50,436 nucleotides of DNA from positions 1 through 50,436 of the forward strand of contig CAZOSY010000001.1 in assembly GCA_964582565.1 (NCBI GenBank). Direction: 5' to 3'. The stretch comes from an uncultured Bacteroidales bacterium. Its GTDB lineage: Bacteria > Bacteroidota > Bacteroidia > Bacteroidales > CAZZDX01. Under the pieces are notes generated by a model. The model was not told where the DNA came from, did no database searches, and saw only the letters and a list, made by a program, of their open reading frames with translations. This document shows, piece after piece, positions 17,267 to 34,448 of the stretch. Positions within the stretch are counted from its first letter, which is position 1. Every line of letters begins with the position of its first letter. The translations under genes and the position numbers were made by a program.

Positions 17267-19123
17267 ATGATTAAAACAAGTATTTTAACTCCATTTAAGG
17301 CTATAAGGTTTCTTTTTAAAAAACCAAAGACATTAAGATTCCCTTTTGAACAGAAGGATACGGCATTGAGATACAGAGGTTTTCATCTTAATGATTGGGA
17401 TAAGTGTACTGGCTGCGGTAATTGTGCTGATATTTGTCCTAATGAGGCTATTAAAATGGTTGAGATACCAGAAATAACACCTAATCCTAAAGAAGGTATG
17501 AAGAATGAAAGACCTGAAATTGACTATGGTAGATGTTGTTTTTGCGGCTTATGTGTTGATATTTGTCCTCCCGGTTCTCTCCGTCTTTCAAGAGATTATC
17601 TACATATTCATTTTGATACAAAAAGTTTTGTTTTTATTCCAAAAGATGAAAAAACAGACAAAGAAAATTTTCTTGATAAAAAAGATTATTCTATATTTAA
17701 AGCAAGTTTGTCACATAGAAAGAAGGATTACGAGGGATTTTCTTCTGACCTTAAATATTCATTATTTGAACCAGAACGTATAATTATGCCTCAGGTAAAA
17801 CCCGAAGAACGTAAACTCTCCTTTATAGAACAAGTTATAGGTTACAGTAAAGAAGAGGCAAAAATGGAGGCCTCAAGATGTCTGGAATGTAAATTATGTG
17901 AAGAGGCCTGCCCTGCACACCTTAAAATTTCTGATTACATCAAGGCAATTTATGAAGACAAACCAGACGAATCATTGAAAAAGATTTATGAGGACAACCC
18001 AATTCCATCAATCTGTGGAAGAATATGTATGGCTCATTGTGAAGATGCCTGTTCAATCGGGAAAAGAGGCGATTCTCTTGCTATAAGATGGATAAAAAGA
18101 TATGCTGCTGATACTATTCAGGATTTTAAATCCACTTTAGAGCTCAAGCCTGCTAAGTCTAACGGTAAAAAAGTAGCAGTTGTCGGTGCCGGACCAGGTG
18201 GTTTATCAGTATCTTATTTCTTAAGACTAAAGGGCTATGAAGTTACAGTATTTGATTCTTTATCAGGAGGAGGTGGAGCCATAAGGATAGGACCGCCAAT
18301 TTATAGATTACCAATAGAGGCAATAGATAAAGATGTGAATTATATAAGCTCTTTGGGAGTTGAGTTTAAATTTAATACAACCATTGGGAAAGATATTTTA
18401 TTTGAAGATATTTTAAAAAATTATGAAGTAGTTTATCTCGGAATAGGTACTTTTGTGAGTCGGTCGACGAGAGTGAAAAATGCGGAAAAATGTTTGTTGG
18501 CACTAAATTTCTTAAAAGAGAATAAAATAGGTGAAGGAGTTAAAGTGGGTAAAGAAATTATAGTAATAGGTGGAGGTAATGTTGCTATGGATACTGCCAG
18601 AGAAGCACTTCGTCTGCAATATATCCAATATCCTAAAGAAGAAGCTATTACAAAGACAGTATCCCTGGAAGATTGGGATATAATGCCAGCAACAGATGAA
18701 GAAATTAAAGAGGCAAAAGAAGAAGGAATACAATTCAATCCTGCATGGGGACCAAAAGAAGTTGTCCTTGATGAAAAAGGAAATATTAAAGGATTGTTAT
18801 GCAAAAAGGTTAAATCAGTATTTGATGAACAAAAAAGATTTTCTCCTACATTTTTTGAAGAAAAAACAATATTGCTGAAAGGTGATATGATTATTGAAGC
18901 TATCGGTCAAGGATCTGACTTTTCATTCATGCCGGAAGAATTATTTAAGAAACTTGAATTTACACCAAGAAGAAAAGTAAAAGTTGATGATAATGGTATG
19001 ACTTCTATACCAAAAATTTTTGCAGGCGGCGATATTGTAAATATTAATTTAGATGCTGTTACTGCAATTGCTGATGCAAAAGTTGCTTCACAAGGAATAG
19101 ATAATTTTTTGTCTTCTATTTAA
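17267..19123 (+). CDS. fusion protein: NuoI/MbxN-like 2x[4Fe-4S] ferredoxin domain + GltD/SudA/NfnB-like NAD(P)H-dependent FAD oxidoreductase
   Basis: N-terminal part: CTGCGNCADICP and CCFCGLCVDICP. C-terminal part: RCLECKLCEEACP, ICGRICMAHCEDAC, VAVVGAGPGGLS, IIVIGGGNVAMD and FAGGDIV. Confidence 0.85.
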   Translation: MIKTSILTPFKAIRFLFKKPKTLRFPFEQKDTALRYRGFHLNDWDKCTGCGNCADICPNEAIKMVEIPEITPNPKEGMKNERPEIDYGRCCFCGLCVDICPPGSLRLSRDYLHIHFDTKSFVFIPKDEKTDKENFLDKKDYSIFKASLSHRKKDYEGFSSDLKYSLFEPERIIMPQVKPEERKLSFIEQVIGYSKEEAKMEASRCLECKLCEEACPAHLKISDYIKAIYEDKPDESLKKIYEDNPIPSICGRICMAHCEDACSIGKRGDSLAIRWIKRYAADTIQDFKSTLELKPAKSNGKKVAVVGAGPGGLSVSYFLRLKGYEVTVFDSLSGGGGAIRIGPPIYRLPIEAIDKDVNYISSLGVEFKFNTTIGKDILFEDILKNYEVVYLGIGTFVSRSTRVKNAEKCLLALNFLKENKIGEGVKVGKEIIVIGGGNVAMDTAREALRLQYIQYPKEEAITKTVSLEDWDIMPATDEEIKEAKEEGIQFNPAWGPKEVVLDEKGNIKGLLCKKVKSVFDEQKRFSPTFFEEKTILLKGDMIIEAIGQGSDFSFMPEELFKKLEFTPRRKVKVDDNGMTSIPKIFAGGDIVNINLDAVTAIADAKVASQGIDNFLSSI

Positions 19124-19129
19124 TATAAT

Positions 19130-19521
19130 TTTTTAAAATTATTACAAACAAAAATTTTTTTAATCAATTAACAGTAACTACTGATATTCTTTTTTTACCG
19201 TCTATTTTAATAGTTAATGGTTTATTAAAACGTATATGTTTAAAATATTTAGTTCTATTGATTAATTTCTGTTTATTCAAAATATCAAAATTAATATAAT
19301 TATCAACAGATAAAGAGTTAATAGAAAAATAACATATATTCATTGAAGTTAGATTATGAAAGAAATGAGAGCCTAAAGAGGCATCAAGTGGAAAATCTTT
19401 TAAACTCATTTCAACAATAACTTTAGCATTAGATATTTGGTGCCAGGCAACAGGTATCCCAATAAATCTATCACGTGTCCCCCATCTGCATGGTCCAATC
19501 AGAACATATTTTTTATTCTTT
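19130..19521. repeat. direct repeat copy 1 (about 392 bp), near-identical to 28234-28626
   Basis: Hand alignment shows roughly a dozen differences, concentrated in the last ~80 bp. Confidence 0.9.
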
Positions 19522-19523
19522 AA
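19164..19523 (-). pseudogene. 3'-terminal fragment (about 119 codons) of the REC-PPDK_N-like gene at 28269..31238
   Basis: Translates to LKNKKYVLIGPCRWGTRDRFIGIPVAWHQISNAKVIVEMSLKDFPLDASLGSHFFHNLTS...ISVVTVN. This nearly matches the C-terminus of the 989-aa protein. The frame is closed by TAA at 19524-19526, so there is no N-terminal part. Confidence 0.85.
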
Positions 19524-20284: not shown

Positions 20285-20322
20285 AAAAAAAAAGTAGAAA
20301 CACATTTATGAATGTCTCTACT
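20285..20322 (-). terminator. intrinsic terminator of gdhA
   Basis: On the minus strand: gtagagaca-(10-nt loop)-tgtttctac followed by T9, about 47 nt after the gdhA stop. Confidence 0.7.
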
Positions 20323-20368
20323 TTGTAAAATTAAACTTTAGTATTGTTGTATGTTTTTATCTGATATA

Positions 20369-21703
20369 TTAAATTATGCCTTGGTCTAACATAGCATCAG
20401 CAACTTTTAAAAATCCTGCAATATTTGCTCCTTTTACATAATTAATATACCCATCATTTTCTTTTCCGTTTTCAATGCAAGCAGTATGGATATTTTTCAT
20501 GATACTAAGCAATTTTTCATTAACTTCTTCTGCTTCCCAGTGCAATTTCATAGAATTTTGAGACATTTCCAAGCCCGAAGTAGCAACTCCGCCTGCATTA
20601 ACAGCTTTTCCGGGTGCAAATACAATTTTATTAGATTGAAGAACTTCAATTGCTTCAGGTGTGCATCCCATATTTGAAACTTCTGCAACTAATGGACATC
20701 CATTATCTATAAGTTTTTGAGCATCTTTTTCATCCAATTCATTTTGTGTAGCACAAGGCATAGCTATATCACATTTTACTTCCCATGGTTTTTTGCCTTG
20801 ATGAAATTCAGAATTAAATTCAAAAGAATAAGGTTTTACTATATCATTATTTGTTGCTCTTAATTCTAACAAATATTCTATTTTTTCGTCAGAGAGTCCT
20901 TCTTTATCATAGATATATCCATCAGGTCCTGAAATTGTAACAACTTTTCCGCCTAATTCTGTAACTTTTTTTGCTACTCCCCATGAAACATTACCAAATC
21001 CTGATATTGCAACAGTTTTACCTTTAATATTTTGTCCTTTATTTTTCAGCATTTCTTCTACAAAATATACAGCACCGTATCCTGTAGCTTCTGGTCTAAC
21101 CAAGCTACCACCCCAATTTAATCCTTTGCCTGTTAATACACCGGTATTTTCGTTTTTTAATTTTTTATACATTCCGTATAAGAAACCTATTTCTCTTGCA
21201 CCAACGCCTATATCTCCTGCTGGCACATCAGTTTCAGGTCCAATAATTTTCCATAATTCCAGCATAAATGATTGACAAAATCTCATTATTTCAGCATTAG
21301 ACTTTCCTTTAGGATTAAAATCCGAGCCTCCTTTACTGCCACCCATTGGCAAAGTAGTTAAGCTATTTTTAAAAATTTGTTCAAATCCTAAAAATTTCAA
21401 TATACTAAGATTAACGCTTGGGTGAAATCTTAAACCACCTTTATATGGTCCAATAGCATTATTAAATTGAACTCTATACCCAAGATTTACATAAACTTTA
21501 CCATTGTCATCTACCCATGGAACTTTAAATGCTAATATTCTATCAGGTTCAATGAGCCTCTCAATAATTCCAGCACTTTCAAATTGTGGATTTTCATTGT
21601 AAACGTCCTCAATAGATTCAAGAACTTCTCTTACAGCCTGAAGATATTCAACTTCGCCAGGATGTTTCCTTTCAAGGTCAATTAAAATTTTTTCTATATT
21701 CAT
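20369..21703 (-). CDS. gdhA: NADP-specific glutamate dehydrogenase
   Basis: 444 aa. GDH signature region LPMGGSKGGSDFNPKG, Rossmann GFGNVSWG, and overall hexameric-GDH-like sequence. Confidence 0.92.
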   Translation of the reverse strand: MNIEKILIDLERKHPGEVEYLQAVREVLESIEDVYNENPQFESAGIIERLIEPDRILAFKVPWVDDNGKVYVNLGYRVQFNNAIGPYKGGLRFHPSVNLSILKFLGFEQIFKNSLTTLPMGGSKGGSDFNPKGKSNAEIMRFCQSFMLELWKIIGPETDVPAGDIGVGAREIGFLYGMYKKLKNENTGVLTGKGLNWGGSLVRPEATGYGAVYFVEEMLKNKGQNIKGKTVAISGFGNVSWGVAKKVTELGGKVVTISGPDGYIYDKEGLSDEKIEYLLELRATNNDIVKPYSFEFNSEFHQGKKPWEVKCDIAMPCATQNELDEKDAQKLIDNGCPLVAEVSNMGCTPEAIEVLQSNKIVFAPGKAVNAGGVATSGLEMSQNSMKLHWEAEEVNEKLLSIMKNIHTACIENGKENDGYINYVKGANIAGFLKVADAMLDQGII

Positions 21704-21945
21704 ATTTTTAGTTATTAAGTTAAAAAAAAATTAATACTAAATGAGCAAGTATAAAAAGAGTTAAAGTCCTTTTTTAGATGTAGAATATAATAAATTTTAT
21801 ATAATAAAAGGTCTTAACCCTTTTTAAACCTGACTCTAATAAAATAAATAAATAATATGCCAAAATTATATTATATAATTTTATTATTATTAAATATTGA
21901 TATAATATAATCCATAATTGGCAATAATGTATATCAATAATATTA

Positions 21946-21959
21946 TTGATATATATCAA
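21946..21959. promoter_or_regulatory. perfect FNR/CRP-family box TTGAT-N4-ATCAA (with an extra ATCAA half-site 8 nt upstream)
   Basis: TTGATatatATCAA lies 67 nt upstream of the Crp/Fnr-family gene start (22026), in the divergent gdhA/crp-like intergenic region. Confidence 0.4.
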
Positions 21960-22025
21960 TAACAGATTAACAAAAATTAATACCTTTGATTTTTTATTAA
22001 ACAAAAATTTATTCTAAATTAGATA

Positions 22026-23168
22026 TTGTTAATAATGATAAATAAAGACCAAAATCTAAAAAAGATAATTAATAATTTAAATGAGAGAACAAAAGAATTA
22101 GATTGTATATATAAAGTTGATGAAATTTTAAGAGATTATGACATAAAATTGGAAGATGTATTAAGCAAGCTTGTAAAAATCATTCCAAAAGCATGGAGAT
22201 ATCCTGATATATGTAAAGTACAAATAATATATAAAGATATAGTTTTAAAAACAAAAGGTTTTAAAAGAACGGAATTAAAACAAAGTGCAAATATTATAGT
22301 AGATAATTATAAAGTTGGCGAGATAAATGTATTTTATATTAAGCCTGTAAAATTAGAAAAAGGAATTTTTTTGTTAGAAGAGTATAAATTATTAAAAATT
22401 ATATCAAATAAATTAAGTGATTTTATTATTCATAAAACGTTAAGAGAAGCTATTGAAAAAAAAGATGATACAAGATTTTTAGATGATAAGAATATAGAAA
22501 ATAAATATTCAAAACTAAAAGAATGGTATAAAAATATGTATTTATCAGATGAAGATTTTAAATTAATAAGTAAAACAAAGGTTAAGTTTAAAAAGGGAGA
22601 GATTATATGTAAACAAGGCTCTTTTAGTTCGTATATTATTTTTACAATTGATGGTCTTGTAAAATTATATATAGAAAGTATGTATAACAAAAATTTTATT
22701 GTAAAAATAATAAAACCATTTGATTTTATAGGATTAACTTCATTGTTTAGTGATGACAATTACTATAATTTTACTGCTAAAGCAATAATACCCTGCACAA
22801 TATATTTAATTGATAAAAATATTTTGAAAAAAATATTATTAAAGAATGAAAATTTTAGAAATGAAATATTAAAATGGTATTGTAACAATTACAGATATCT
22901 TTATAATAAACTTTCTTGTATAACAAGCAAACAATCACTTGGACGTGTAGCCAATACCTTATTGTATTTAACGCAAGAAATATCTGATAATAATACTATA
23001 AGTTCATTAATTTCAAGAAAAGATATTGCAGAATTATCAGGTATAACAACAGAAAACACTGTTCGTATATTATCAGAGTTAAAAAAGGATGGTATAATAA
23101 ATATAAGTAAAAAAGGTATTGAAATTGTAAATCTCAAATTATTAAAAGCTTATAATATTGCAGGGTAA
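22026..23168 (+). CDS. Crp/Fnr-family transcriptional regulator with an extra N-terminal sensor module
   Basis: The C-terminal half has a cNMP-binding-like beta-barrel (FKKGEIICKQGSFSSYIIFTIDGLVKLY) and a Crp HTH (ISRKDIAELSGITTENTVRILSELKKDGII). The N-terminal ~130 aa is homologous to the N-terminus of ORF 27390..28223. Confidence 0.8.
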   Translation: MLIMINKDQNLKKIINNLNERTKELDCIYKVDEILRDYDIKLEDVLSKLVKIIPKAWRYPDICKVQIIYKDIVLKTKGFKRTELKQSANIIVDNYKVGEINVFYIKPVKLEKGIFLLEEYKLLKIISNKLSDFIIHKTLREAIEKKDDTRFLDDKNIENKYSKLKEWYKNMYLSDEDFKLISKTKVKFKKGEIICKQGSFSSYIIFTIDGLVKLYIESMYNKNFIVKIIKPFDFIGLTSLFSDDNYYNFTAKAIIPCTIYLIDKNILKKILLKNENFRNEILKWYCNNYRYLYNKLSCITSKQSLGRVANTLLYLTQEISDNNTISSLISRKDIAELSGITTENTVRILSELKKDGIINISKKGIEIVNLKLLKAYNIAG

Positions 23169-23196
23169 TATTTTATAAATTTTTCTATTCTTGTAA

Positions 23197-26172
23197 CTAT
23201 TTTTTAGGTTTTAGTATTACTCCTTTATTTTTTCTACCATCAATCATTACTTTAAGAGGAGTATTAAATCTTATATGTTTTATAAATTCACTTTCATAAA
23301 AAGCTTTACGTTTTGACAGATATTCCAAGTCATAATATCCATCATTGATAAAAGGATTTATAGTAAAATAGCCAACTTTAAAAGATGTAAGATTTTGAAA
23401 AAAGTGAGTTCCCTGACTTGGTTCTATTCTATAATTTTCTAATCCTGCTTCAACAATAGCTCTTGCTTCTGAAATTTGATACCATTTTACAGGAATACCT
23501 AAGAAAGGGTCTTCGGATCCCCATCTTCCGGGTCCTACTAATATATAATTTTTTTTGTCATTAATAAATTTTTCGTTAATTTTTTCTATTTCTAATGTAA
23601 GAGCATTATTATTAGAAGCTTTAAAAGTTTCAGGTTTGATATAAATAAAATCATAGGTATCGTCAATAATTCCATTTCCTAATGCCAAATTTGAATATAT
23701 AATAGTTTTTTTTAAAGAAATTTTTTCAATATCAAAGTTAGTTTTTTCATTGTTAAACACTATTGGTCGTATTTGTAAGAAATTAAATATTTTCGGTTTA
23801 TTTTTTTCAGTATCCAAATTAACAGCAAATTCAATTTCTACAGGAGTATTCATTTCTTTTTGTCCAACTTTTAATAATGTTTGCAAGATGTCAGATAGAG
23901 GAAATGTATTATAATTTAAAATATTTGAAAAAGTTATGATTTTTTTGCCTTGATAATTCGTTCCATCCCTTATAACATTATTTTGAAAGTCATAAGTTGA
24001 TGAAACATATTTTATAGAATCATCTTTTTCAGTTTCTTTAATTTTTAATTTTAATATATTAACATCATCATTAGTAGAAGGGATACAACTATCAGCAAAC
24101 AGGTCTAAGGCATAAAATATTTTTTGAGTATCTTTAATAGCCATTTCAGTAGAAGAAAGTTGTAATATTTTTTTAGGATATTTAGGAGAAAATCTTAATG
24201 TTTTGCCACCGTCAACGACATATTTTCCTAATCCAAAAGCAATGTTTGCTATACCATCTTCGTGTTTTTCGGGATAAATAGGATAAAAATTAATTGACCT
24301 TGCAACGCCGGATATCGTTGGGTAAAATTTATTATTATATCTTTTTCCGCAAACTTCCTGAATTATTATACCCATTTTTTCATGATCAATTACATTTGAT
24401 GTTGCAAGCATATACGATTTACTACTTTTATAGAATACGGATGCATAAACACTTTTTATTGCATTAGTTAATAATTTGATCATCAATTTTTTATTGGTTT
24501 CAATTTTAGGTATCATATAAGTAGAATATATTCCTGCAAAAGGTTGATACTGAGAATCTTCTAAAAGACTTGAAGATCTTACAGCAATAGGTCTCTTAAA
24601 AACAGATAGTATAGCAAATAAATCTTTATATATTCTATCAGGCAATTTAGCTTTAACAAAATATTTTAGAATTTCTTCATCGCTTAAATCTGATAATCCT
24701 ATTTCATACAGATTATTTTTTTTCATAAATTCATCAAAGATATCAGTACAAAGCACAATAGTTCTTGGTATAGTTATAAACAAATCGTCATATTTATCAA
24801 AAATTCTATTTCTTTTTATAAAAGAGTCAACAAAAGCAAGACCTCTTGCCTTGCCTCCTATTGAGCCATCTCCAATACGTGAAAAAATTGAGTATTTATC
24901 AAAACTATTTTTATCAAATTTGGCTATAATTCCATGTCCTTTATTTTGTCTAAACTTGGATATTATATCAAATATATAATCTCTTACTTCGCCAATATTA
25001 TTAAAATCTTTACTTTTTAAAGGTTCTAACATTTTTGCAATAGGGAATAATGCACGTGCATTTAGCCATCTTGAAAAATCATTTTTATTAATGTGATGTC
25101 TAATAGATTCGTCAGGTATTGTTAAAATTTTTTGTTGCAAGGATTGTAAGTCAGAAACTCTGTCTATTTCTTTGGATGTGTTTGGATCTATAAAAACAAA
25201 ATCTCCAAAAACAAAATATTTATAAAAATAATTTTCTAGTTCAATAGATAATATTTTAGAATTTTTATTAATAAATCCTATATTAAAAGAATCTGCGATT
25301 TTCTTGTTTTCAATATCTAATGACTGTAATATAAAAGGTATATATTTATTATCATTCTTGATTTCTTTGTATAATTTAATTCCTGCCTGACTATCTGTTT
25401 CACCATTTTTTTTATACTTAATATCTGATATAATACCTAATATATTTTCCTTATATTTTTCATACAAAGTAATAGCTTCTTCATAATTAGTAGCAAAAAG
25501 AATTTTTGGACGTCCTCTTTTATGTAGAGATTTTTGATGCTCATTAAGTCCTTCTGTCATAAAGGACTGTGATTGTTTAAATAAAATTTTATAAATGTTA
25601 GGTAGATAACTTGAATAATATCGTAAGGAATTTTCAACTAATAAAATAGCTTGTACTCCTATATTATAAATATCATTTTCTGCATTCATTTTGTCTTCAA
25701 TTAGCTTAATAATAGCCAATAAAATATCTGGATTGCCCAACCAACAAAAAGTATAATCAATATAATTTGTATTTTTAATATCTAATTCTATACTAACTTT
25801 TCTGGAAAGATGCGTTAAAACAACAATTGGTATTTCTGTATATTTTTCTTTTATTTTTTTTGACAGATTAAAAATATCTATATCTCCTGTGCTTGGTATA
25901 GCTATTACTAAACTAATATTTTCCTGTTCTAAAATTTTAAATGCTTTTTGTCTTGTATTTGCCTGAATAAAAACTGGAGGATACCTAAGATTTAGAGATG
26001 CATATTCATTAAATATTTGTTCATCAATACGGCCATCTTCCTCAATCAAAAAAATATCATAATTACTACAAATAAGTAATACTTTATAAATTCTTTTTTG
26101 CATTAATTTATTAAAGGATGTATCGTTAAAATAATATTTTTGTGATTCTACTTTTACTGTTTTTTTTATCAT
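23197..26172 (-). CDS. pseudo-receiver + receiver (REC) + PEP/pyruvate-binding (PPDK_N ATP-grasp) protein, paralog 1
   Basis: REC-like region: ILLVENS..IISDIKY..ILQSLD. PPDK_N motifs: GGKARGLAF, AVRSSSLLEDS..FAGIYST, PVEIEFAV..LQIRPI. C-terminal conserved region: GPGRWGSEDPFLGIPV..GTHFFQNLTS. Confidence 0.8.
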   Translation of the reverse strand: MIKKTVKVESQKYYFNDTSFNKLMQKRIYKVLLICSNYDIFLIEEDGRIDEQIFNEYASLNLRYPPVFIQANTRQKAFKILEQENISLVIAIPSTGDIDIFNLSKKIKEKYTEIPIVVLTHLSRKVSIELDIKNTNYIDYTFCWLGNPDILLAIIKLIEDKMNAENDIYNIGVQAILLVENSLRYYSSYLPNIYKILFKQSQSFMTEGLNEHQKSLHKRGRPKILFATNYEEAITLYEKYKENILGIISDIKYKKNGETDSQAGIKLYKEIKNDNKYIPFILQSLDIENKKIADSFNIGFINKNSKILSIELENYFYKYFVFGDFVFIDPNTSKEIDRVSDLQSLQQKILTIPDESIRHHINKNDFSRWLNARALFPIAKMLEPLKSKDFNNIGEVRDYIFDIISKFRQNKGHGIIAKFDKNSFDKYSIFSRIGDGSIGGKARGLAFVDSFIKRNRIFDKYDDLFITIPRTIVLCTDIFDEFMKKNNLYEIGLSDLSDEEILKYFVKAKLPDRIYKDLFAILSVFKRPIAVRSSSLLEDSQYQPFAGIYSTYMIPKIETNKKLMIKLLTNAIKSVYASVFYKSSKSYMLATSNVIDHEKMGIIIQEVCGKRYNNKFYPTISGVARSINFYPIYPEKHEDGIANIAFGLGKYVVDGGKTLRFSPKYPKKILQLSSTEMAIKDTQKIFYALDLFADSCIPSTNDDVNILKLKIKETEKDDSIKYVSSTYDFQNNVIRDGTNYQGKKIITFSNILNYNTFPLSDILQTLLKVGQKEMNTPVEIEFAVNLDTEKNKPKIFNFLQIRPIVFNNEKTNFDIEKISLKKTIIYSNLALGNGIIDDTYDFIYIKPETFKASNNNALTLEIEKINEKFINDKKNYILVGPGRWGSEDPFLGIPVKWYQISEARAIVEAGLENYRIEPSQGTHFFQNLTSFKVGYFTINPFINDGYYDLEYLSKRKAFYESEFIKHIRFNTPLKVMIDGRKNKGVILKPKK

Positions 26173-26384
26173 ATATAAATTATATTTTAGGTTGTAATAA
26201 TATTTAGGGTTTGTGAAAAAATAACCTATTCATTTTGACTCGTTCTTTTGCTCTTTTTCTTCGTTACAAAATCCTTAAATAGCTGTGCTATTCGCAAATT
26301 ATGTGCCTTGAAAAAGAACAAAATAACTTCGTCAATTCTGTATACTTTATTTCTTCACAAGCCCTTAGTAACAAAATTAAATGC

Positions 26385-26538
26385 TATTTAGTGTTTGTCC
26401 ATAATGTCCGATTTCTTCGTTACGCTTGTCTTTCAAATCAGTCATTTACAAAAGTAAACTCCTGATTTTCAATACTACGCAAGCCTTGAACTCGAACATT
26501 CTGAACTAAACACTTACTTTATGGACAAACACTATTTA
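26385..26538. mobile_element. 154-bp MITE-like element, copy A (20-bp perfect TIRs tatttagtgtttgtccataa / ttatggacaaacactattta)
   Basis: Near-identical to 38139-38292. No coding capacity. The last 3 nt form the stop codon of the phosphoesterase gene. Confidence 0.7.
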
Positions 26539-27387
26539 TATTAAATATCTTGAAGCCAAAAAAGGTTTTTCAATATCAAATTTAATAATAGCCAATTGTG
26601 GTTTATCATAAGCAGCAGAAAAAGTATATGTATTTTTTATCTGTTGTTTCCAGTATCCTGTTATACGTGAAGATTCGTGTATGTGCCCATGAAGTGTAAT
26701 AAACGGTTGTTTTTCTTCAATAAATCTTTTTATGGCAATGCTTCCAACATGAACATCCATAGGTACATAGTCAATTGTTTTTCCATCTAATGCTGCTCTA
26801 TCTAAATTTGTTTTATATGGAGGAGCATGAAATAAGAATATAGAACATGAAAGGTCATCTTTGTTTGTTAATTTTTCTAAATCTTCTTGTATAGTAGAAT
26901 AATTCATTTTATCATAAGATTCGGGAATAGATATGTATCCTTCGGTTGGTGGTATGCATCCAGGGTCAACGAATCTTGATACATCATATCGTTCCCAATC
27001 TTTCAGCAAAAAAGGTGTTGGAGGAACATAAGAATAGCCATAAATTTGATATTGTTTATATTTTACTTTTTTGTTATGTATATATTTCCATAGTCCTAAT
27101 TTTTCAGCATTAATAAAAAGAATTTCTTTATTTCGCAAATCGTCATTTCCAAGTATTAAGAATATTTCAGGATAATTATTACTTAGTTCTTTTTTTAACC
27201 TTAAAAAATTTTTGATTAGATAATCTTTAGTAAAATCTTCATAATCTTTATTATGTATTAATTCATTAGGCAGCAGGTCCCCACCAATAAAAACAATTTT
27301 TGGTTTTTTTTTCTTTATTTCATCAAATAATTTTTTGTATCTATCTATTTTACCATGTAAATCTGATACGAAATAGCAAAGTGTCAT
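26536..27387 (-). CDS. calcineurin-like metallophosphoesterase
   Basis: Ordered motifs SDLHG, GGDLL, GNDD, FHAPP and HGHIHES. Confidence 0.85.
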   Translation of the reverse strand: MTLCYFVSDLHGKIDRYKKLFDEIKKKKPKIVFIGGDLLPNELIHNKDYEDFTKDYLIKNFLRLKKELSNNYPEIFLILGNDDLRNKEILFINAEKLGLWKYIHNKKVKYKQYQIYGYSYVPPTPFLLKDWERYDVSRFVDPGCIPPTEGYISIPESYDKMNYSTIQEDLEKLTNKDDLSCSIFLFHAPPYKTNLDRAALDGKTIDYVPMDVHVGSIAIKRFIEEKQPFITLHGHIHESSRITGYWKQQIKNTYTFSAAYDKPQLAIIKFDIEKPFLASRYLI

Positions 27388-27389
27388 TT

Positions 27390-28223
27390 TTATTTTTTTG
27401 TTGTTTTTAATAATCTTGCAGAATTAAAGGCAGAATTAATCATTACAGCAAAACTTGTTTTGTTTTTTATATCATGGTCTGTTATAATGTGCAAATCAAT
27501 TAATCCATCAGATTTATATCCTGTTTTGAAATAATTCATTTCAGAGAGGCATAAGCTCCAACCTTCAATCCATGCAGTAAGTTCTTTTTTTTGATTTTCA
27601 TTACCTGTAAAATGTATTAAGAGGTCAATATCACTATTTGGTCCTGCATTAGCATTTTTGGTGCTACCAATGATATAAAAATTTCCAACCCCAAATCTGT
27701 CAAAATCAATTTTTTTGGCAATAATATTTGCCATTTTTAATCTCCATTTCCAATGTTCATCAGATTTTGGTGAAAGTATAACATCATCAGAACTTTTAGA
27801 TGGAGATTTTATATATGACAGAGTATGTTTTATCTTCTTATGAAAAAAATAATTGCCTAATCTATTAACAATTGTATTTAGCAATTTTTGTTCTTCAGGC
27901 AGAAATTGACTGTTATTTAATAATCTTATAAATTGAGTATAAAATACTTGTATTTTACCAAGAATATTATTATCTATAATAATATCTGCATGCTGAGACC
28001 ATTGAGTTTCTATAAAATCATCTGATTCAAATATTTTGTTCTCATATATTATTCTTACTTGACATATAGCTGGATATTGCCATCCGTTAGGTATTATATT
28101 TATTAGTTTTTTAAATAAATTTTTATTATCTATATCATAATTTTTTAATAGTTCTTCAACATTATATATGCAGTTTAGCTCTTTGTTTCTTTCTTTTAAT
28201 TTATCAAATGCTATATTTCTCAT
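27390..28223 (-). CDS. sensor-module + Pol-beta-superfamily nucleotidyltransferase (MNT-like)
   Basis: C-terminal half: IIGSTKNANAGPNSDIDLLIHF (GS-x10-DxD) plus a downstream DLHIITD. The N-terminal ~125 aa is homologous to the N-terminus of the Crp/Fnr-like protein. Confidence 0.75.
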   Translation of the reverse strand: MRNIAFDKLKERNKELNCIYNVEELLKNYDIDNKNLFKKLINIIPNGWQYPAICQVRIIYENKIFESDDFIETQWSQHADIIIDNNILGKIQVFYTQFIRLLNNSQFLPEEQKLLNTIVNRLGNYFFHKKIKHTLSYIKSPSKSSDDVILSPKSDEHWKWRLKMANIIAKKIDFDRFGVGNFYIIGSTKNANAGPNSDIDLLIHFTGNENQKKELTAWIEGWSLCLSEMNYFKTGYKSDGLIDLHIITDHDIKNKTSFAVMINSAFNSARLLKTTKK

Positions 28224-28233
28224 TTTTATTAAA

Positions 28234-28626
28234 TTTTTAAAATTATTACAAACAAAAGTTTTTTTTTATCAATTAACAGTAATTACTGATATTCTTTTTT
28301 TACCGTCTATTTTAATAGTTAATGGTTTATTAAAACGTATATGTTTAAAATATTTAGTTCTATTGATTAATTTCTGTTTATTCAAAATATCAAAATTAAT
28401 ATAATTATCAACAGATAAAGAGTTAATAGAAAAATAACATATATTCATTGAAGTTAGATTATGAAAGAAATGAGAGCCTAAAGAGGCATCAAGTGGAAAA
28501 TCTTTTAAACTCATTTCAACAATAACTTTAGCATTAGATATTTGGGGCCAAGTAACAGGTATCCCAATAAATCTATCACGAGTTCCCCATCTGCCTGGTC
28601 CAATCAGAACATATTTTTTATTCTTT
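28234..28626. repeat. direct repeat copy 2 (3' UTR + last ~118 codons of the 989-aa gene)
   Basis: Matches 19130-19521. Confidence 0.9.
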
Positions 28627-31238
28627 GAAATCATTTCTGCATTCAATTTTTCAATTTCATAGGTCATTTCAAGGGTCTTGGTCTTGTCAAATTTATCATT
28701 ATCTAGAAATATTATATCATTGATATCATCAATTTTTCCATTTCCCATACTTTTTTGTGAATATAGTAAAGTATTTTTTTTGTTTATTTTATCAATATTA
28801 ATATTATAATCATTATCGCTTCCTATTAATGATTTTATTTGTAGCAAATAAAAAGAAGCATTATAATTTTTATCTTTATTTAAGTCAACGGCAAATTCTA
28901 TTTCTACAGGTGTTCCCATAGCTTCTTCTACAACATCAAGGATAGTATTAATTGTCTTAGAAAGAGGGATATAGTCATACTTTAATATATCAGCAAAATT
29001 GATAATTCTTGGTCCATTAGAAGTTAATCCCGGACTTATAACATCATTCTCCACATTATATACAGAAGCACAATGGTCAAGTGTTCCATGTTTTTCTGCT
29101 TCACTAATATCCATTTTTATAAGAGCTGCTTCTTCTCCTTTTTCAAGTAAGTTAATATCTTTTTTGTTCATATCAACAGCATATAAATACACCTGAGAAC
29201 TTTTGTATAAATCTTTTATTGAATTAATTTCAACTTTAGGATATTTTGGAGAAAATCTATAAGCTTTTTCACCTTGCACAACGTATCGTCCCAAGCCAAC
29301 AGCAGTAACAGTAAATCCTTCTTCGGGTTTCATATTTGCTACAGGATAATAATTATATGATTGTGCTACGCCACTAAAATGAGGATAAAAACAACCATTA
29401 AATTGATTGCCAACAACTTCCTGAATTATTACTGCCATTTTTTCTTCTTCTATTTTGTAGTTCACAGCTTTGAAGTAATTGCGGGAAGTATCAGAATATA
29501 TTGATGCAAACACTAACCTAATAGCATCCATTGTTTGCTGGAGTCGTATATTAAAATCAGGATTATTGTTTGGTAGCATGAAAGTTGAAAATATACCTGC
29601 AAATGGATGCATCATAGAATCTTCAAACTGACTTGATGACCGAATAGCTAATGGCTTTTTTATAAGTTTTAGTAATATTTTTAATCTTTTTGTAAGATTG
29701 TATGATAATTGTAATTTTAAAAATGTCTTTTTTAAATTATTATAGTTTTTTTCAGTATATATATATTTATTCAGATTATTTTTATTTATAAAATCTTCAA
29801 ATTCACTAGTGCCAATAATTATAGTTTTAGGTGTTTTTATATTAATATCAGATATAATATTATGAAAATCCACATTGTTAACCAAATTATTTATAAAAGC
29901 CAGTCCTCTTCCTTTTCCACCTAATGTTCCTGATGCAAAGCTTATAATATTTTTACCATCAAACGTAATTGATTTATCAAAATTAATAACTTTCCCTTTA
30001 TCTTTATCCTGTCTATATTTACTAATAACATTAAGAATATACTCACGTAGCTCATTAGTAGTATTAAAGTCAGACACTTTGACAGGATTAATTATTTTTG
30101 CAACTTGAATTTCTCCACGAGCCATTAGCCATAATGAAAAATGATTTTTTGAGGCATGTTTAATAAGCGATTCGTCAGGAATAGTTCTTAAATGTGTTTC
30201 AAATTCTTTTAAAGATTTAGCAACGGCAATCTGTCTTCCTAATCTATCACGATAAACGAAATTACCAAAACCGAGATAATAAATAATAAAGTCCTTTAAG
30301 TCTTGTAATAAAGTTTCGGAATCTTTATTAATAAATATAGAATTTAGTTTATATGCATCTTTTGAATATTCAGCGTCAGATGACTGTAATATAGTAGGTA
30401 AATCATTTATTTCATTTTTTATATGTTTCAAAAGTTCAATACCTGCTTTATCATATAATTCATTATTTTTTTTAAATTTTACATCAGAAATAACACAAAG
30501 CACATAATCTTTATATCTACTAAAATAATCAATTGCCTCTTCATAATTAGATGCTAAAAGGACTTTTGTCCTTGCTCTCATCCTTGCTATTTTATTAAAT
30601 TCATTGTTGTTAACATCAGCAATTAGTTTCTCTGTCTGTTCAAAAATAATAGAATATAACACAGGCAGATATCTGGAATAATATTCTGCAGAATCTTCAA
30701 CTAATAAAATAACTTTTACATTACCAATTTTTGTATCATTTTCAGCATTCATTTTATCTTCAGCATATTTAACCATTGTAAAGAAAATTTTGGAATCACC
30801 ATTCCAGACAAATATCCTATCTATTGTAGATAATTTTCTGCTTTGATTTTCAAAAAATCTAATATTACTATTATTGTTTAGGAGTAAAAATATCGGCAAG
30901 TCAGGATATTTTTCTTTAATTTTCTTACTAAGTTCAATGTGTATGGTATTATTAATTCCCATCATAAGTATTACCAAGTCAAATCCTCTGTTTTCTAATA
31001 ATTCTAATGTGTCTTCGGGAGACGATGTTCCTGTAATACTTGGAAGAGAAGATAAATTAAGATGATATACCTCTCCCATTGACTGTTCAAAAAATCTGTC
31101 TTCGTTTTCAAGTATATATGCATCATACAAAGTTGAAACAAGCAGTATCTCTTTTACTTTAAATTGCATCAAATTATGGTAAATATCCCTGTTTGAATTT
31201 TTTTTTCTTAAAAACTTTTCCAATAATTGTGTCTTCAT
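28269..31238 (-). CDS. pseudo-receiver + receiver (REC) + PEP/pyruvate-binding (PPDK_N ATP-grasp) protein, paralog 2
   Basis: ILLVEDS..VISDVKF..ILQSSD; GGKGRGLAF; AIRSSSQFEDS..FAGIFST; PVEIEFAV..LLQIKSL; GPGRWGTRDRFIGIPV..GSHFFHNLTS. Collinear with paralog 1. Confidence 0.8.
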   Translation of the reverse strand: MKTQLLEKFLRKKNSNRDIYHNLMQFKVKEILLVSTLYDAYILENEDRFFEQSMGEVYHLNLSSLPSITGTSSPEDTLELLENRGFDLVILMMGINNTIHIELSKKIKEKYPDLPIFLLLNNNSNIRFFENQSRKLSTIDRIFVWNGDSKIFFTMVKYAEDKMNAENDTKIGNVKVILLVEDSAEYYSRYLPVLYSIIFEQTEKLIADVNNNEFNKIARMRARTKVLLASNYEEAIDYFSRYKDYVLCVISDVKFKKNNELYDKAGIELLKHIKNEINDLPTILQSSDAEYSKDAYKLNSIFINKDSETLLQDLKDFIIYYLGFGNFVYRDRLGRQIAVAKSLKEFETHLRTIPDESLIKHASKNHFSLWLMARGEIQVAKIINPVKVSDFNTTNELREYILNVISKYRQDKDKGKVINFDKSITFDGKNIISFASGTLGGKGRGLAFINNLVNNVDFHNIISDINIKTPKTIIIGTSEFEDFINKNNLNKYIYTEKNYNNLKKTFLKLQLSYNLTKRLKILLKLIKKPLAIRSSSQFEDSMMHPFAGIFSTFMLPNNNPDFNIRLQQTMDAIRLVFASIYSDTSRNYFKAVNYKIEEEKMAVIIQEVVGNQFNGCFYPHFSGVAQSYNYYPVANMKPEEGFTVTAVGLGRYVVQGEKAYRFSPKYPKVEINSIKDLYKSSQVYLYAVDMNKKDINLLEKGEEAALIKMDISEAEKHGTLDHCASVYNVENDVISPGLTSNGPRIINFADILKYDYIPLSKTINTILDVVEEAMGTPVEIEFAVDLNKDKNYNASFYLLQIKSLIGSDNDYNINIDKINKKNTLLYSQKSMGNGKIDDINDIIFLDNDKFDKTKTLEMTYEIEKLNAEMISKNKKYVLIGPGRWGTRDRFIGIPVTWPQISNAKVIVEMSLKDFPLDASLGSHFFHNLTSMNICYFSINSLSVDNYINFDILNKQKLINRTKYFKHIRFNKPLTIKIDGKKRISVITVN

Positions 31239-31413
31239 AATTTAATTTGGTTTTTGTATTACACAAAATTAACAAGTTTATCTTTAGGGGAGTTCTAATA
31301 ATTACTTTTTAGACAAAAATAAAAATTTTTGTAGATTTTTTTGATGTATCATGATTTAAACTCCCGTTTTAGCAACCATATTTTTTAAATTAAACCAAAA
31401 ATGCTGTTTTTTG

Positions 31414-32018
31414 GGTTCAAAGAAAATAATAGGGGGACAATAGGTTTTATTGTAACCGTTCATAGATTGAAATTAAAATAATAAAATCAAAAGCCAAAAG
31501 CCAAAAATTAAAAGTCAAAAGTGTCTTGAGTTCAGAACATTTATCTTGATTTTGAAGTTACGATAGATTTTGCAATTATTTTTATCAATTCTATTAATAA
31601 ATCTGTTCAGGCATCAGTCGGGCGCCTGACCGAACTGCCTGATTATTCAGATACTTTTTTCTTTATTTTTTATTTCTATCTAACGAGGGCAAATAATTTG
31701 TTCCTGTTGATGTCCCTGCACGAAATAGTTGTCCGTAAATGTGGCAACCTTCATAAGTTTTGTTTAGTTTTTTTCCTAATTTGATAATACTTACAGCAAA
31801 TTCTAATCCGCCTAATCTTGTTTCATTTATTATAACCTTTATTTTTGATTTTATTTTTTTTGTCTTTTGTCTTTTGTCTTTAAAAATAAATATCTTTTAT
31901 TTTTTAGTTCCGCAATACTGGGGGATGAATGGTTACAAAATATTTTAATATCGTCTCTTTTTCCATAGTACAAATATACTAAATTAAATCTCACTCACCC
32001 TATTATTTTCTTTGAACC
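31414..32018. mobile_element. 605-bp non-autonomous element bounded by perfect 21-bp TIRs (ggttcaaagaaaataataggg / ccctattattttctttgaacc) with nested inner repeats
   Basis: The TIRs were read directly. Inner layers are ttgtaaccgttcat / atgaatggttacaa and the A-rich repeats aaaagccaaaagcc / gtcttttgtcttttgtc. Confidence 0.7.
31663..31836 (-). pseudogene. truncated four-helix-bundle (23S rRNA intervening-sequence-type) protein remnant in the core of the TIR element
   Basis: Hand translation gives VIINETRLGGLEFAVSIIKLGKKLNKTYEGCHIYGQLFRAGTSTGTNYLPSLDRNKK*. The segment QLFRAGTSTGTNY resembles the QLxRSGTSIGANY core of that family (from memory). There is no start codon, and the C-terminal half is missing. 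Confidence 0.45.
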
Positions 32019-32036
32019 GTTTTTTGTCTTATAGTT

Positions 32037-34448
32037 TTATATCTTTTTTTTAAAATACCAATAATCCAGATAATAAAGTATTTTAACAGAAAAACTATTT
32101 ATTTGCGGGGAATTTATAGTGTTATTAAAATTTTCAAAATACCTGCTTATTAACTTATTCTCTTCTTTATAAATAGCATTTTTCCATACAAGAGATATTT
32201 CACTTCCAGGAGCAAAATTCCATGTATAAGATAAATCAATATTAAATGTATTGAAATTAATATTTTGATGAGCAGAATAATTAGTATTATCAAGAGAGCC
32301 ATCATTATTAAGTATGTAAAAACTGTTATAATCAACTTTTGACCAGTAATGACGCAAACGAAAATTTAACGATGATTTATTATTAAATATATAGCTTGTT
32401 GTAAGAGTATTGGTAATTGTAACAATATCTCTTTTCCCAAAATATATTGTCCCGGCATTGTTATCTACATAACCTATATCATTTTTGTTAATGCTTTTAT
32501 TAAAGTTGTATATAAACAACATCTTGTTATTTGCCCTAAAACGTGGTGAGAGTTCATACCAGTATGCTTTTTGGCTTTTTTTAGAAGATTGCCATGTTCC
32601 TGAACTACAATCAACAGCTAATTTTTTTCTGTAATCTGAAGAGAGCCAAAAATTTACTTCAAAAAAACCTGGTATCACAAACACTCTACCGGGGACCCTT
32701 GCCTCAAAATAATCATTATATCCTAAAGGGTTAATATCTCCATTAAATCCTGCTGACAAGTAATTTTTAAAAGTTGTATGTGAATTAGTATTAATAGAAA
32801 TACCTGTAAATTTTCTGGGAGAATATAAGCAAGAATGTTCTATCTCCATTTCATTAAACCAGTTAAGCAATTTCCAAAATGGTTTATAGGTATTATAATT
32901 TAGTTCCAATTTATTTTTAAATTCATTATTCCGTTGTAAATATCCTAAGTCATTTGGGTTGTAAGTATCACTTAAGACCTTTTGTGAAAATTCAACCAAA
33001 AAATTCCCACTTATTTTTTCTAATTCCAATTTATACATATATCCGAAGTCTGGATTTTTGTTATTGTAATATTTCTGACTAACAACGCCTATGCCTTCTA
33101 TGGCATAGGATTTTTTATTATTTGCTATTCTAAACTCTGTTCCACTAACATTGGCAGAATATTTTTCTCTTGAGACATTAGTATTAACAATACTTATATA
33201 AGAATTGTTTTTCAAATTCTGGTCAAAGGCAATCATATTATAGTTTGTAAATGGCTGTGTTATAAATTTTCGTTTTATACCATTAGAGTCAGCAATAGTT
33301 GCATAAGTATTAGCTGTCATAGCATTAAACACACCTATTCCAAGTCCTTTTTTATTTCTTCCTGATATTTTTGTTGCATTAATTAATTGAGTTTCACCAG
33401 GATTTTCAATGAACTCCTCCCCTATTTTCAAGCTATCGCTAATATTATCATATCCTAATGGAGTAGAGCCAATACGTCTTGAATAAAATATATCTGCTTT
33501 GGTAAATAATTCTGTGCCTTCGGTAAAAAATTGTCTTTTTTCAGTATAATATATTTCAAAAGGTGAGAGATTTAGTATTTTATCATCAGATTGAACTTGT
33601 CCAAAGTCAGGTATCAATGTCATATCAATCGTAAAACTTTCGTTAATTCCATATTTTATGTCCATTCCAGCATTATAAGGATATGTACAGTTTTTGTTAT
33701 CAGGATTTTTGTCCAGATAAGCAGATAAATAAGGAGTAAACGATAATCTTAAAGGAGGTTTGATATTAAAAATACCTGTTATTTTGCCTGATTGATTAAG
33801 AATTCCATCTTGTTTTCTGTCAATAAGATTCCATGTTGACCATTCGCGGTATCTTCGTATCTGTCGCCAAAAGTTAACATTCCATATCTGTTTGTCTTTT
33901 TTAGGAAACCTAATAGCAGAATAAGGAATTTTCATTTCAATGCTCCATCCTTTATCATTTATGCTTATTTTGCTTTCCCATACAGCATTCCAGCTTGCAT
34001 CGTGATAATTGGCAGAATATTTTGCATCAATCTGTACTCCTGATGCAGTAACTTTAAATTCCAATCCATTTAATCCGTCATTAAACGGACATATATCCAT
34101 TGAAAACATATCAGCATTTATATCATCATTATCACGTTTGCTAAGTTCTGTCAGGATACTATCAGGTGCAGCATCATACAGCATAGCTCCTATATATAGA
34201 GCATTGTCATCATAAATTAGTTTTACTTCTGTTTTTTGTGATGCAGGTTTACCATTATAAGGTTCAAATTGAAAAAAATCAGTTGCTACCGGCACATTAT
34301 TCCAGACCTCTTCATCCAAGATACCATCAATTTTTAGTGGAGAAGATGTTCTTATTGCCTGTATTTGTTTTTCCTGAGCATATAAAACAAAGCTCGTAAG
34401 ACAAATGATAACGGACAAAAAAATTTTATTTAATATATAACGAAACAT
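32037..34448 (-). CDS. outer-membrane-associated CBM9/DOMON-like + DUF5916-like protein
   Basis: Signal peptide. N-terminal region IDGILDEEVWNNVPVATDFFQFEPYNGKPASQKTEVKLIYDDNALYIGAMLYD. Long Tyr/Asn-rich beta-strand region. 803 aa. Confidence 0.65.
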   Translation of the reverse strand: MFRYILNKIFLSVIICLTSFVLYAQEKQIQAIRTSSPLKIDGILDEEVWNNVPVATDFFQFEPYNGKPASQKTEVKLIYDDNALYIGAMLYDAAPDSILTELSKRDNDDINADMFSMDICPFNDGLNGLEFKVTASGVQIDAKYSANYHDASWNAVWESKISINDKGWSIEMKIPYSAIRFPKKDKQIWNVNFWRQIRRYREWSTWNLIDRKQDGILNQSGKITGIFNIKPPLRLSFTPYLSAYLDKNPDNKNCTYPYNAGMDIKYGINESFTIDMTLIPDFGQVQSDDKILNLSPFEIYYTEKRQFFTEGTELFTKADIFYSRRIGSTPLGYDNISDSLKIGEEFIENPGETQLINATKISGRNKKGLGIGVFNAMTANTYATIADSNGIKRKFITQPFTNYNMIAFDQNLKNNSYISIVNTNVSREKYSANVSGTEFRIANNKKSYAIEGIGVVSQKYYNNKNPDFGYMYKLELEKISGNFLVEFSQKVLSDTYNPNDLGYLQRNNEFKNKLELNYNTYKPFWKLLNWFNEMEIEHSCLYSPRKFTGISINTNSHTTFKNYLSAGFNGDINPLGYNDYFEARVPGRVFVIPGFFEVNFWLSSDYRKKLAVDCSSGTWQSSKKSQKAYWYELSPRFRANNKMLFIYNFNKSINKNDIGYVDNNAGTIYFGKRDIVTITNTLTTSYIFNNKSSLNFRLRHYWSKVDYNSFYILNNDGSLDNTNYSAHQNINFNTFNIDLSYTWNFAPGSEISLVWKNAIYKEENKLISRYFENFNNTINSPQINSFSVKILYYLDYWYFKKKI

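Follow-up and report, generated by a model that had tools for sequence, protein, structure and literature searches.

The 50,436-nucleotide stretch of an uncultured Bacteroidales genome considered here (contig CAZOSY010000001.1, G+C content ~27%; referred to in full as the window) carries a cluster of five genes that specify two large ATP-grasp proteins, which we call BIG1 and BIG2, a nucleotidyltransferase (NTase), a metallophosphoesterase (MPE) and a Crp/Fnr-type regulator. An earlier note, which covered positions 22026–31238 only, had described this cluster from the letters of the sequence and had judged it not assignable to any pathway. All five open reading frames (ORFs) are present at the coordinates reported there, and our ORF calls and Pfam searches reproduced those coordinates together with the gaps between the genes and the domains of their products. 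Four genes lie in succession on the minus strand, these being BIG1 (28269..31238; 989 aa, PPDK_N), the NTase gene (27390..28223; 277 aa, NTP_transf_2), the gene for the calcineurin-like MPE (26536..27387; 283 aa, Metallophos) and BIG2 (23197..26172; 991 aa, PPDK_N), with intervening gaps of 45 bp, 2 bp and 363 bp. The two large proteins are paralogs, as had been proposed, with 40% identity over 971 residues. BIG2 converges, with 28 bp between the two genes, on the plus-strand gene for the Crp/Fnr-type regulator (22026..23168; 380 aa, or 377 aa in the database gene call, which begins at an ATG three codons in; cNMP_binding and HTH_Crp_2). The N-terminal sensor said to be common to the NTase and the regulator is likewise borne out (43% identity over 127 aa, E = 2e-34), and we refer to the two proteins as sensor-NTase and sensor-Crp. 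Divergent from the sensor-Crp gene is gdhA (20369..21703, minus strand), which encodes a glutamate dehydrogenase (GDH) of 444 aa (Pfam ELFV_dehydrog and ELFV_dehydrog_N). Only the sensor-Crp gene separates BIG2 from gdhA downstream of it; the earlier note therefore stops a single gene before the partner that BIG genes keep across genomes, and the cluster can be placed in a metabolic context after all.

The evidence for this partnership comes from the neighbourhoods of BIG genes in 15 genome loci and 80 metagenome loci whose BIG proteins are 37–63% identical to BIG1. Locus maps were built by ORF calling and phmmer scans, and the counts given below refer to the 93 loci that are not closely related to the window. 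A GDH ORF was found no more than 700 bp from a BIG gene in 48 of these 93 loci, and adjacency reached 24 of 47 when only loci with flanks of 1.8 kb or more on either side were counted. Adjacent GDH ORFs lay predominantly on the same strand as the BIG gene (48 versus 10 on the opposite strand). As a control for kinship we clustered the BIG proteins at 70%, 55% and 45% identity, and GDH adjacency was found in 30 of 63, 13 of 22 and 6 of 6 clusters, respectively. In Ignavibacteria the two kinds of gene are interleaved in the order gdh-BIG-gdh-BIG-gdh. At least two BIG ORFs were present in 30 of the 93 loci, typically as a sensor-bearing BIG1 followed directly by a sensor-less BIG2, which is also the normal arrangement among relatives of the window genes; such tandems occur in L003, L006–L008, L013 and L014 and in many metagenome loci.

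Genes for a KorA/KorB-like 2-oxoacid:ferredoxin oxidoreductase lie directly upstream of BIG1 in nine loci. In these loci (L029, L033–L038, L047 and L049; for example L034 5564–9372), a MurI-KorA-KorB set, specifying glutamate racemase and the alpha and beta subunits of the oxidoreductase, precedes a sensor-bearing BIG1 on the same strand and occupies the place that gdhA takes in other loci. Clustering of the genes near BIG identified glutamate racemase in six loci and a GltD-like protein in five loci, and GDH, KorAB, glutamate racemase and the GltD-like neighbours use common metabolites (2-oxoglutarate/glutamate). The genomic association of BIG with GDH and with KorAB is a strong and deep one, and gdhA is likely the target under regulation.

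Several other genes are found beside BIG. NarL/LuxR-type response regulators (REC plus GerE) were present near BIG in 15 loci (including L024, L027, L032 and L041), often divergent from and directly upstream of a sensor-bearing BIG1, and could be partners or regulators of BIG. Histidine kinases that bear the sensor lie near BIG in L011, L015 and L054. In the high-G+C locus L045, an Enzyme-I-like gene of the phosphotransferase system (PEP-utilizers and PEP-utilizers_C; 1–1395, plus strand) ends 3 bp before BIG. An NAD(P)H/ferredoxin theme also recurs. In the window, a Nuo/Mbh-like operon (14164–19123, plus strand; NADHdh, 20K, 30K and 49K subunits) that ends in a GltD-like Fer4_20/Pyr_redox_2 protein abuts the cluster, and in L026 (12988–19723) and L030 a NuoE/NuoF/GltD-formate-dehydrogenase-like operon lies with rubrerythrin between BIG1 and BIG2.

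BIG1 and BIG2 share a single order of domains. Both match PPDK_N (PF01326) in Pfam (7e-39 and 8e-40, respectively), and in BIG1 this ATP-grasp domain (residues 438–803) is preceded by a pseudo-receiver (~27–160), a canonical receiver (~175–310) and a DUF5752-like region (~325–435) and is followed by a C-terminal domain (~815–989); BIG2, like the BIG1 of the window, is without the sensor. We assessed the conservation of individual residues in an alignment of 118 BIG family members that are 22–89% identical to BIG1. Within the ATP-grasp domain K442, R533, S534, E539, D540, E781 and Q800 are the same in all 118 members, and the nucleotide- and metal-binding motifs (GGK, RSS, ED, ExE and Q) are all present. 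The second receiver retains E181/D182, D252 (113 of 118), S/T286 (116 of 118; Ser in BIG1) and K305 (116 of 118), whereas the acceptor position of the first receiver is occupied by M, T, I, L or N and never by Asp. The REC assignment made from the sequence, and the phospho-input proposed to pass through it, thus stand for the canonical second receiver but not for the first. The C-terminal ~175 residues contain invariant GPGRWG, D888, GIP and SxGSH923FFxN motifs. His923 of the last motif, present in 117 of 117 BIG sequences, falls within the sole low-confidence loop of the C-terminal domain in an AlphaFold2 model of BIG1 (mean predicted local distance difference test score, or pLDDT, of 81). 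The best Foldseek match of this model was rifampin phosphotransferase (Rph; E = 1.5e-11), with pyruvate, phosphate dikinase (PPDK) next, and the N-terminal third matched tandem-receiver proteins such as PleD, PorX and NtrC-type regulators; CheB was also among the structural matches.

Judged by sequence, the BIG proteins are PPDK_N-type ATP-grasp enzymes that stand outside the characterised dikinases, which makes the names under which they appear in databases ("pyruvate, phosphate dikinase" and "PEP/pyruvate-binding domain-containing protein") misleading. The NCBIfam models for PpsA, PigC, RedH and Rph match only residues 429–835, scoring 14–51 bits where the cut-offs are 598–1350, and no characterised enzyme aligns with the large proteins from end to end. 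NCBIfam matched no counterpart of the rifampin-binding region of Rph, and Pfam found no match to the phosphoenolpyruvate (PEP)/pyruvate TIM barrel (PF02896). For the C-terminal domain there was no Pfam match even at E = 10 when six such domains were searched, and no PDB match in a profile search. This domain was also considered as a phosphohistidine swivel (PF00391, GGxTSH), and this candidate was rejected, with Pfam and PDB searches negative and hhalign comparisons to profiles built from one, and then four, real swivel sequences giving less than 1% probability. Because the swivel searches were all negative we claim no homology, and the invariant His alone stands. The pyrophosphoryl or dikinase step that had been suggested for these proteins is likewise unproven, since neither a phosphohistidine swivel nor a PEP/pyruvate domain is detectable. 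More than 6,000 of 8,000 scored candidates belong to the family at E ≤ 1e-10, no curated model in Pfam or NCBIfam covers either the family or the sensor, and our literature searches, which included DUF5752, PPDK_N with receivers and Bacteroides GDH inactivation, found no paper on the BIG family.

The sensor spans residues 1 to ~140 of the NTase and residues 1 to ~145 of the Crp protein and is marked by the motifs ERxKELxC, PxxWQYP and GPFLxEE and by a conserved Cys18. It is also a regular component of BIG1: most BIG1 homologues are 1150–1420 aa in length, a size that is due to one, two or three copies of the sensor at the N terminus, and the sensor has been lost from the BIG1 of the window and from its 79–89% identical relatives. 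A decayed sensor upstream of BIG1 (31239–32036) was sought and rejected, as phmmer on window ORFs of at least 40 aa matched the NTase and Crp copies only. A profile of the sensor recovered 8,712 representative protein clusters. When partner domains were counted by Pfam in 88 proteins, the sensor was found with HATPase_c of histidine kinases in 17, with PAS (PAS_8) in 14, with NTase in 9, with Crp-type cNMP_binding and with the LuxR helix-turn-helix (HTH) in 8 each, with PPDK_N in 4, with STAS in 3 and with MCP in 2. In an AlphaFold2 model of sensor-NTase (pLDDT 91.6) the sensor has an alpha-alpha-beta4-alpha fold, for which Foldseek returned the GAF domains of Nlh1, NifA, CodY and phytochromes with a probability of ~1 and target-normalised template modelling scores of 0.4–0.58, at weak E-values of 4e-3 to 5e-2. 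In addition, P0242, a protein built of four sensor copies, gives a partial Pfam GAF match (1.2e-7). Sequence and model together predict that the sensor is an unannotated, GAF-like and promiscuous signalling input.

Sensor-Crp combines this input with a cNMP_binding domain (PF00027, 6.6e-14) and an HTH_Crp_2 domain (PF13545, 4.1e-14), scores far below all equivalog cut-offs in NCBIfam, and belongs to a family of at least 330 full-length members of ~370–380 aa. Its gene adjoins BIG in all three foreign contexts examined and is divergent from gdhA in two of the three. In one of these (L104) gdhA and the Crp gene are divergent and BIG converges on the Crp gene; in the other (L105) the same divergent pair is met by BIG2 and BIG1, which converge on the Crp gene, and a second gdhA follows. 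An FNR/FixK-type palindrome, TTGAT-N4-ATCAA, is found in all four divergent Crp-gdhA intergenic regions (those of the window, L016, L104 and L105). The window copy (TTGATATATATCAA, 21946..21959) is the sole exact occurrence in 50 kb and is accompanied by additional TTGAT/ATCAA half-sites. Exact boxes occur in no more than 8 of 107 loci, three of the eight being Crp-gdhA intergenic regions. We therefore regard the box as a candidate operator of sensor-Crp. Its conservation in Crp-gdhA intergenic regions points to gdhA, together with autoregulation, as the most likely transcriptional output. As one-mismatch boxes in the window occur at chance level (8 observed versus 9.15 expected), no wider regulon can be read from it.

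Sensor-NTase appears, from its sequence and its model, to be the sensor fused to a minimal nucleotidyltransferase of the pol-beta/MNT type. It matches NTP_transf_2 in Pfam (3.6e-6), an alignment of 67 sequences shows no variation at G186, S187, D198 and D200, which make up a GS...D198xD200 motif, or at the third carboxylate, D243, and the catalytic half matched 2rff, 8xeh, MNT/MntA and AAD(9) in Foldseek. There are at least 657 homologues, mostly ~280–290 aa in length and 51–71% identical. In the MPE (Metallophos, 3.5e-13), the metal-site motifs D9xH11, G36-D37, G80-N81-D82-D83, H187 and G234-H235-x-H237 are conserved without exception in 10 orthologues, with motif III reading GNDD and thus without the usual His of GNH[DE]. 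That the NTase and MPE form a pair, as the first description of the cluster held, is well supported by their co-occurrence in seven of eight distinct contexts (L016, L018, L020, L022, L103, L106 and L107); the NTase stands alone in one (P0140). In L018, L020/L021, L022, L106 and L107 an MPE orthologue, 52–57% identical to the MPE of the window, follows the NTase by 1–22 bp. The MPE also occurs apart from the NTase, as in L071 and L096 its orthologue comes directly after BIG, overlapping the BIG stop codon, with gdhA on the other side. No HEPN domain was detected among the called neighbours of the NTase. Two contexts contain genes for phosphate handling: in L018 (5122–9835) sensor-NTase lies beside two PHO4 transporters and a PhoB-like response regulator and kinase, and in the P0140 context it lies beside a PstSCAB-like ATP-binding cassette transporter. 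These two unrelated contexts may point to some function of the NTase-MPE pair in connection with phosphate.

The modules come together elsewhere. In L103, BIG1-NTase-MPE-BIG2-Crp forms one same-strand, translationally coupled operon whose members are 45–62% identical to those of the window, comprising a sensor-BIG1 of 1150 aa, a sensor-NTase (46%), an MPE (58%), a BIG2 (62%) and a sensor-Crp (48%), with a 4-bp overlap of BIG1 and the NTase gene, spacers of 1–6 bp between the genes that follow and one of 93 bp ahead of the Crp gene. L016, which is 89% identical to the window, has its exact gene order, gdhA included. Along with the MPE genes that follow BIG in L071 and L096, these loci indicate that the genes are linked rather than randomly juxtaposed, and that their homologues do adjoin one another in other loci. 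The suggestion that the cluster is a self-contained system is upheld as regards functional linkage and a common sensor, but not as regards self-containment, for across the 93 other BIG loci the NTase is found in none, the MPE in two and the Crp gene in two. The cluster is instead a composite of three separately conserved modules with one common sensor.

Signs of rearrangement surround the locus. The 363-bp spacer between the MPE gene and BIG2 (26173..26535), described previously as repeat-filled, indeed contains repeats, which we could refine to two ~150-nt imperfect hairpin elements in tandem that resemble miniature inverted-repeat transposable elements or repetitive extragenic palindromes. 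Their inverted repeats have arms of 19 nt (26389–26407/26516–26534) and 32 nt (26201–26232/26339–26370), and the RNA fold of the spacer has an energy of −114.7 kcal/mol (z = −9.7). In L016 the gap between the MPE gene and BIG2 is 53 bp and the hairpin elements are absent; the spacer is a lineage-specific insertion. Arm-like copies in two other intergenic regions (38143–38158 and 45261–45276) suggest a small dispersed family of palindromic elements. Beyond gdhA and an ORF tailed for the type IX secretion system (Por_Secre_tail), which flank the cluster in the window along with a DUF5916/CBM9 gene (Pfam) and identify the contig as Bacteroidota, lies a copy of the last 118 codons of BIG1 (codons 872–989) and of the 45-bp BIG1-NTase spacer (19119..19523, minus strand; 95–97% identical). 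This copy carries G882C and P898H at positions that are invariant in the family, marking it as what remains of a segmental duplication or rearrangement that took place recently. In the 800 bp upstream of BIG1, a short decayed ORF containing GLEFAVSIIKLGKKLNKTYEGCHIYGQLFRAGTSTGTNY can be read on the minus strand (~31460–31900), flanked by inverted repeats of the AAGACAAAAG/CTTTTGGCTTTTG type; it may resemble the "23S rRNA intervening sequence" genes for four-helix-bundle proteins, which are common in Bacteroidota. An Rfam match to a eukaryotic microRNA precursor upstream of gdhA (21746–21832, minus strand) was discarded as a chance AT-rich hairpin, scoring 29.9 bits against a gathering threshold of 84, and Rfam returned nothing else over 19000–32100.

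We propose that the locus is a multi-layer, ligand-gated control unit for GDH and the 2-oxoglutarate/glutamate node, a reading to which we give an even chance of being correct. According to this proposal, a transcription factor, the ATP-grasp pair and the NTase would all detect one metabolite through the sensor that they have in common. At the level of transcription, sensor-Crp would bind the TTGAT-N4-ATCAA operator and thereby set the expression of gdhA and of its own gene. At the level of protein activity, BIG1 and BIG2 would be ATP-dependent enzymes gated by their PleD-like tandem of pseudo-receiver and receiver and, in most genomes, by an N-terminal sensor copy as well, and would probably act as a heteromer. 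BIG would probably pass a phosphoryl group of ATP, possibly via His923, to GDH or to a partner of GDH, and the MPE would remove the modification that BIG had made. The sensor-gated NTase would attach a nucleoside monophosphate (NMP) to some protein or small molecule belonging to this pathway, a product for which the MPE would serve as eraser too. Together these layers would set the expression of GDH and, probably, its activity. Within this scheme we infer the ligand, the molecule modified, the chemistry of BIG beyond ATP binding and the direction of regulation, as well as the chemistry and targets of the NTase and MPE. Direct covalent modification of GDH by BIG we consider unlikely as it stands. 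Similarly doubtful, for the present, is the broader idea that the BIG family constitutes a previously unrecognised class of ATP-grasp protein-modifying enzymes that covalently switch GDH, and perhaps 2-oxoglutarate:ferredoxin oxidoreductase, on and off in response to a metabolite, with the MPE as eraser.

A number of observations weigh against such a control unit. The modification of GDH is a proposal drawn from sequence and gene context. Only the invariance of His923 and its position in a low-confidence loop of the model speak for its being a phospho-carrier, and the domain in which it resides has no Pfam, PDB or PEP-utilizers swivel match. No cognate histidine kinase was found in the window, and none is encoded in its cluster. 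The copies of the sensor in the window have no Pfam match, GAF included, and the Foldseek E-values that relate them to GAF domains are weak. The case for the Crp box comes from four loci, two of which are close relatives. In about half of the BIG loci whose flanks are long enough there is no GDH beside BIG, and the nine KorAB loci are syntenic, such that one evolutionary event may be behind them all. Finally, the NTase, MPE and Crp genes are rare or absent in the other BIG loci, as noted above, and the NTase-MPE pair is usually distant from BIG and GDH, with no BIG found within 8–10 kb of it in L018, L020, L022, L106 and L107. Phosphate transporters and cell-wall genes are among the neighbours of this pair, which may serve a broader purpose than the control of GDH.

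These last observations lend themselves to a different explanation, in which the assembly is a lineage-specific juxtaposition: BIG1-BIG2-gdhA would be one system, and the NTase and MPE would be an unrelated mobile module inserted between the BIG genes and uncoupled from them. Besides the 0 of 93 and 2 of 93 counts and the five foreign NTase-MPE contexts that lack BIG, the other cargo between BIG1 and BIG2 in L026 and L030 favours insertion, as do the signs of recent rearrangement in the window, namely the relic of the BIG1 3' end and the hairpin elements. Yet the order BIG1-NTase-MPE-BIG2-Crp recurs in L103 at 45–62% identity and with overlapping or closely spaced junctions, the MPE directly follows BIG in two further lineages without the NTase, the same sensor domain is found in all three modules, and gdhA lies 6–7 kb from the NTase-MPE pair in L020, L022 and L107. 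On balance we think it improbable that the modules are uncoupled.

An explanation that fares about equally, and that we likewise hold to be unlikely, is that the BIG proteins are regulated dikinase-like phosphotransferases acting on a small molecule of glutamate/2-oxoglutarate metabolism, the product of which the MPE hydrolyses. The closest solved structures in structural and sequence comparisons, Rph followed by PPDK, are small-molecule phosphotransferases, the closest NCBIfam matches (PpsA, PigC and RedH) are all small-molecule enzymes, and the neighbours GDH, KorAB and the GltD-like proteins are metabolic enzymes around 2-oxoglutarate or glutamate. However, no substrate domain akin to the PEP/pyruvate TIM barrel is detectable in BIG, and the Rph models match the ATP-grasp part only, with scores far below their cut-offs. 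The combination of sensor, tandem receivers and enzyme is typical of signalling proteins (PleD, PorX and CheB), and the paralogs are kept as a pair in which only one carries the sensor, which suggests a regulatory heteromer instead.

Considerably less probable is a nucleotide second-messenger circuit, in which a messenger made by the NTase would be degraded by the MPE, as a relative of class III phosphodiesterases, and sensed by the Crp protein for the control of gdhA. The cNMP_binding domain of the Crp protein, the tight pairing of writer and eraser and the co-operonic arrangement of all three genes in L103 would fit such a circuit. But the NTase domain, at ~135 aa, matches the MNT and aminoglycoside NTases that transfer a single NMP rather than cyclases or CD-NTases, and most NTase-MPE pairs have no sensor-Crp nearby. 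The MPE has GNDD where class III phosphodiesterases carry GNHD, and the effector domains of Crp/Fnr proteins accept many non-nucleotide ligands. We rejected on genomic context, as very improbable, a role in anti-phage defence for the NTase and MPE or for the cluster as a whole: although there are weak PADLOC matches (NTase to PDC-S09, 2.9e-7; MPE to PDC-S10, 4.2e-10) and type VII toxin-antitoxin systems contain NTases of the MNT type (Foldseek), the PADLOC matches span 40–90 residues of generic catalytic cores only, BIG and the Crp protein have none, there is no HEPN partner, the sensor belongs to ordinary signal-transduction proteins, and synteny with the housekeeping genes gdhA, guaA and korAB is stable across phyla.

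The proposed control unit is made of parts from known superfamilies (ATP-grasp/PPDK_N, REC, MNT NTase, calcineurin-like MPE, Crp/Fnr and GAF-like), and comparison with characterised systems brings out what is particular to their arrangement. BIG has the PPDK_N ATP-grasp domain of Rph, PpsA and PPDK, with Rph as its best structural match, but it has no detectable phosphohistidine domain, TIM barrel or rifampin-binding domain, and it adds the tandem receiver, the DUF5752-like region and usually one to three N-terminal sensors to what is found in the dikinases. PleD resembles BIG in having two successive receivers before an enzymatic output with a phospho-acceptor in only one of them; in BIG the degenerate receiver comes first, which is the reverse of the order in PleD, and the output is ATP-grasp rather than GGDEF. 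By analogy, BIG also recalls PtsP (EI-Ntr), in which a GAF-type sensor is fused to a phosphotransferase of the ATP/PEP family in the service of nitrogen and carbon status; the PtsP sensor responds to glutamine and 2-oxoglutarate. Unlike BIG, with its ATP-grasp domain and receivers, Enzyme I has the N-terminal, mobile and C-terminal PEP-utilizers domains, and for BIG we saw no partner resembling HPr or NPr and an Enzyme-I-like gene upstream in L045 only.

The accessory modules invite comparisons of their own. GlnD and GlnE are similar to this locus, again by analogy, in that a pol-beta NTase, hydrolytic removal and a small-molecule sensor are combined in a nitrogen context. In the present locus, however, the NTase is a minimal one of the MNT type and the presumed eraser is a separate calcineurin-like MPE, whereas the erasers of the GlnD/GlnE scheme are HD or second NTase domains; the sensor is ACT in that scheme and GAF-like here. 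Sensor-NTase has in common with MntA-HepT and the aminoglycoside NTases the minimal fold and the GS...DxD motif, and differs from MntA-HepT in its lack of a HEPN partner, in its fusion to the sensor and in its frequent MPE partner. Sensor-Crp is like FNR, FixK and NtcA in its cNMP_binding-type effector domain, its HTH_Crp_2 domain and the TTGAT-N4-ATCAA box beside its gene, and unlike them in possessing an extra N-terminal GAF-like sensor of ~145 aa. NtcA, which responds to 2-oxoglutarate, provides a precedent within the Crp family for the control of nitrogen genes.

With these findings, the large and uncharacterised BIG family gains a physiological context in GDH and the 2-oxoglutarate/glutamate node, its naming as a dikinase is corrected, and the sensor is defined as a new and widespread input domain. 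That the BIG family is a new system of protein modification is a real, though unproven, possibility. Nitrogen control in Bacteroidota is poorly understood, and these bacteria are not known to use the enterobacterial GlnD/GlnE/NtrBC scheme; older enzymology reportedly describes a reversible inactivation of Bacteroides GDH in vivo by a mechanism that is not known. The locus described here supplies testable genes, residues (H923 and D252) and an operator with which nitrogen control may be approached. If the proposed mechanism is true, Bacteroidota and Ignavibacteriota would gain a functional counterpart of GlnE/GlnD or AceK.

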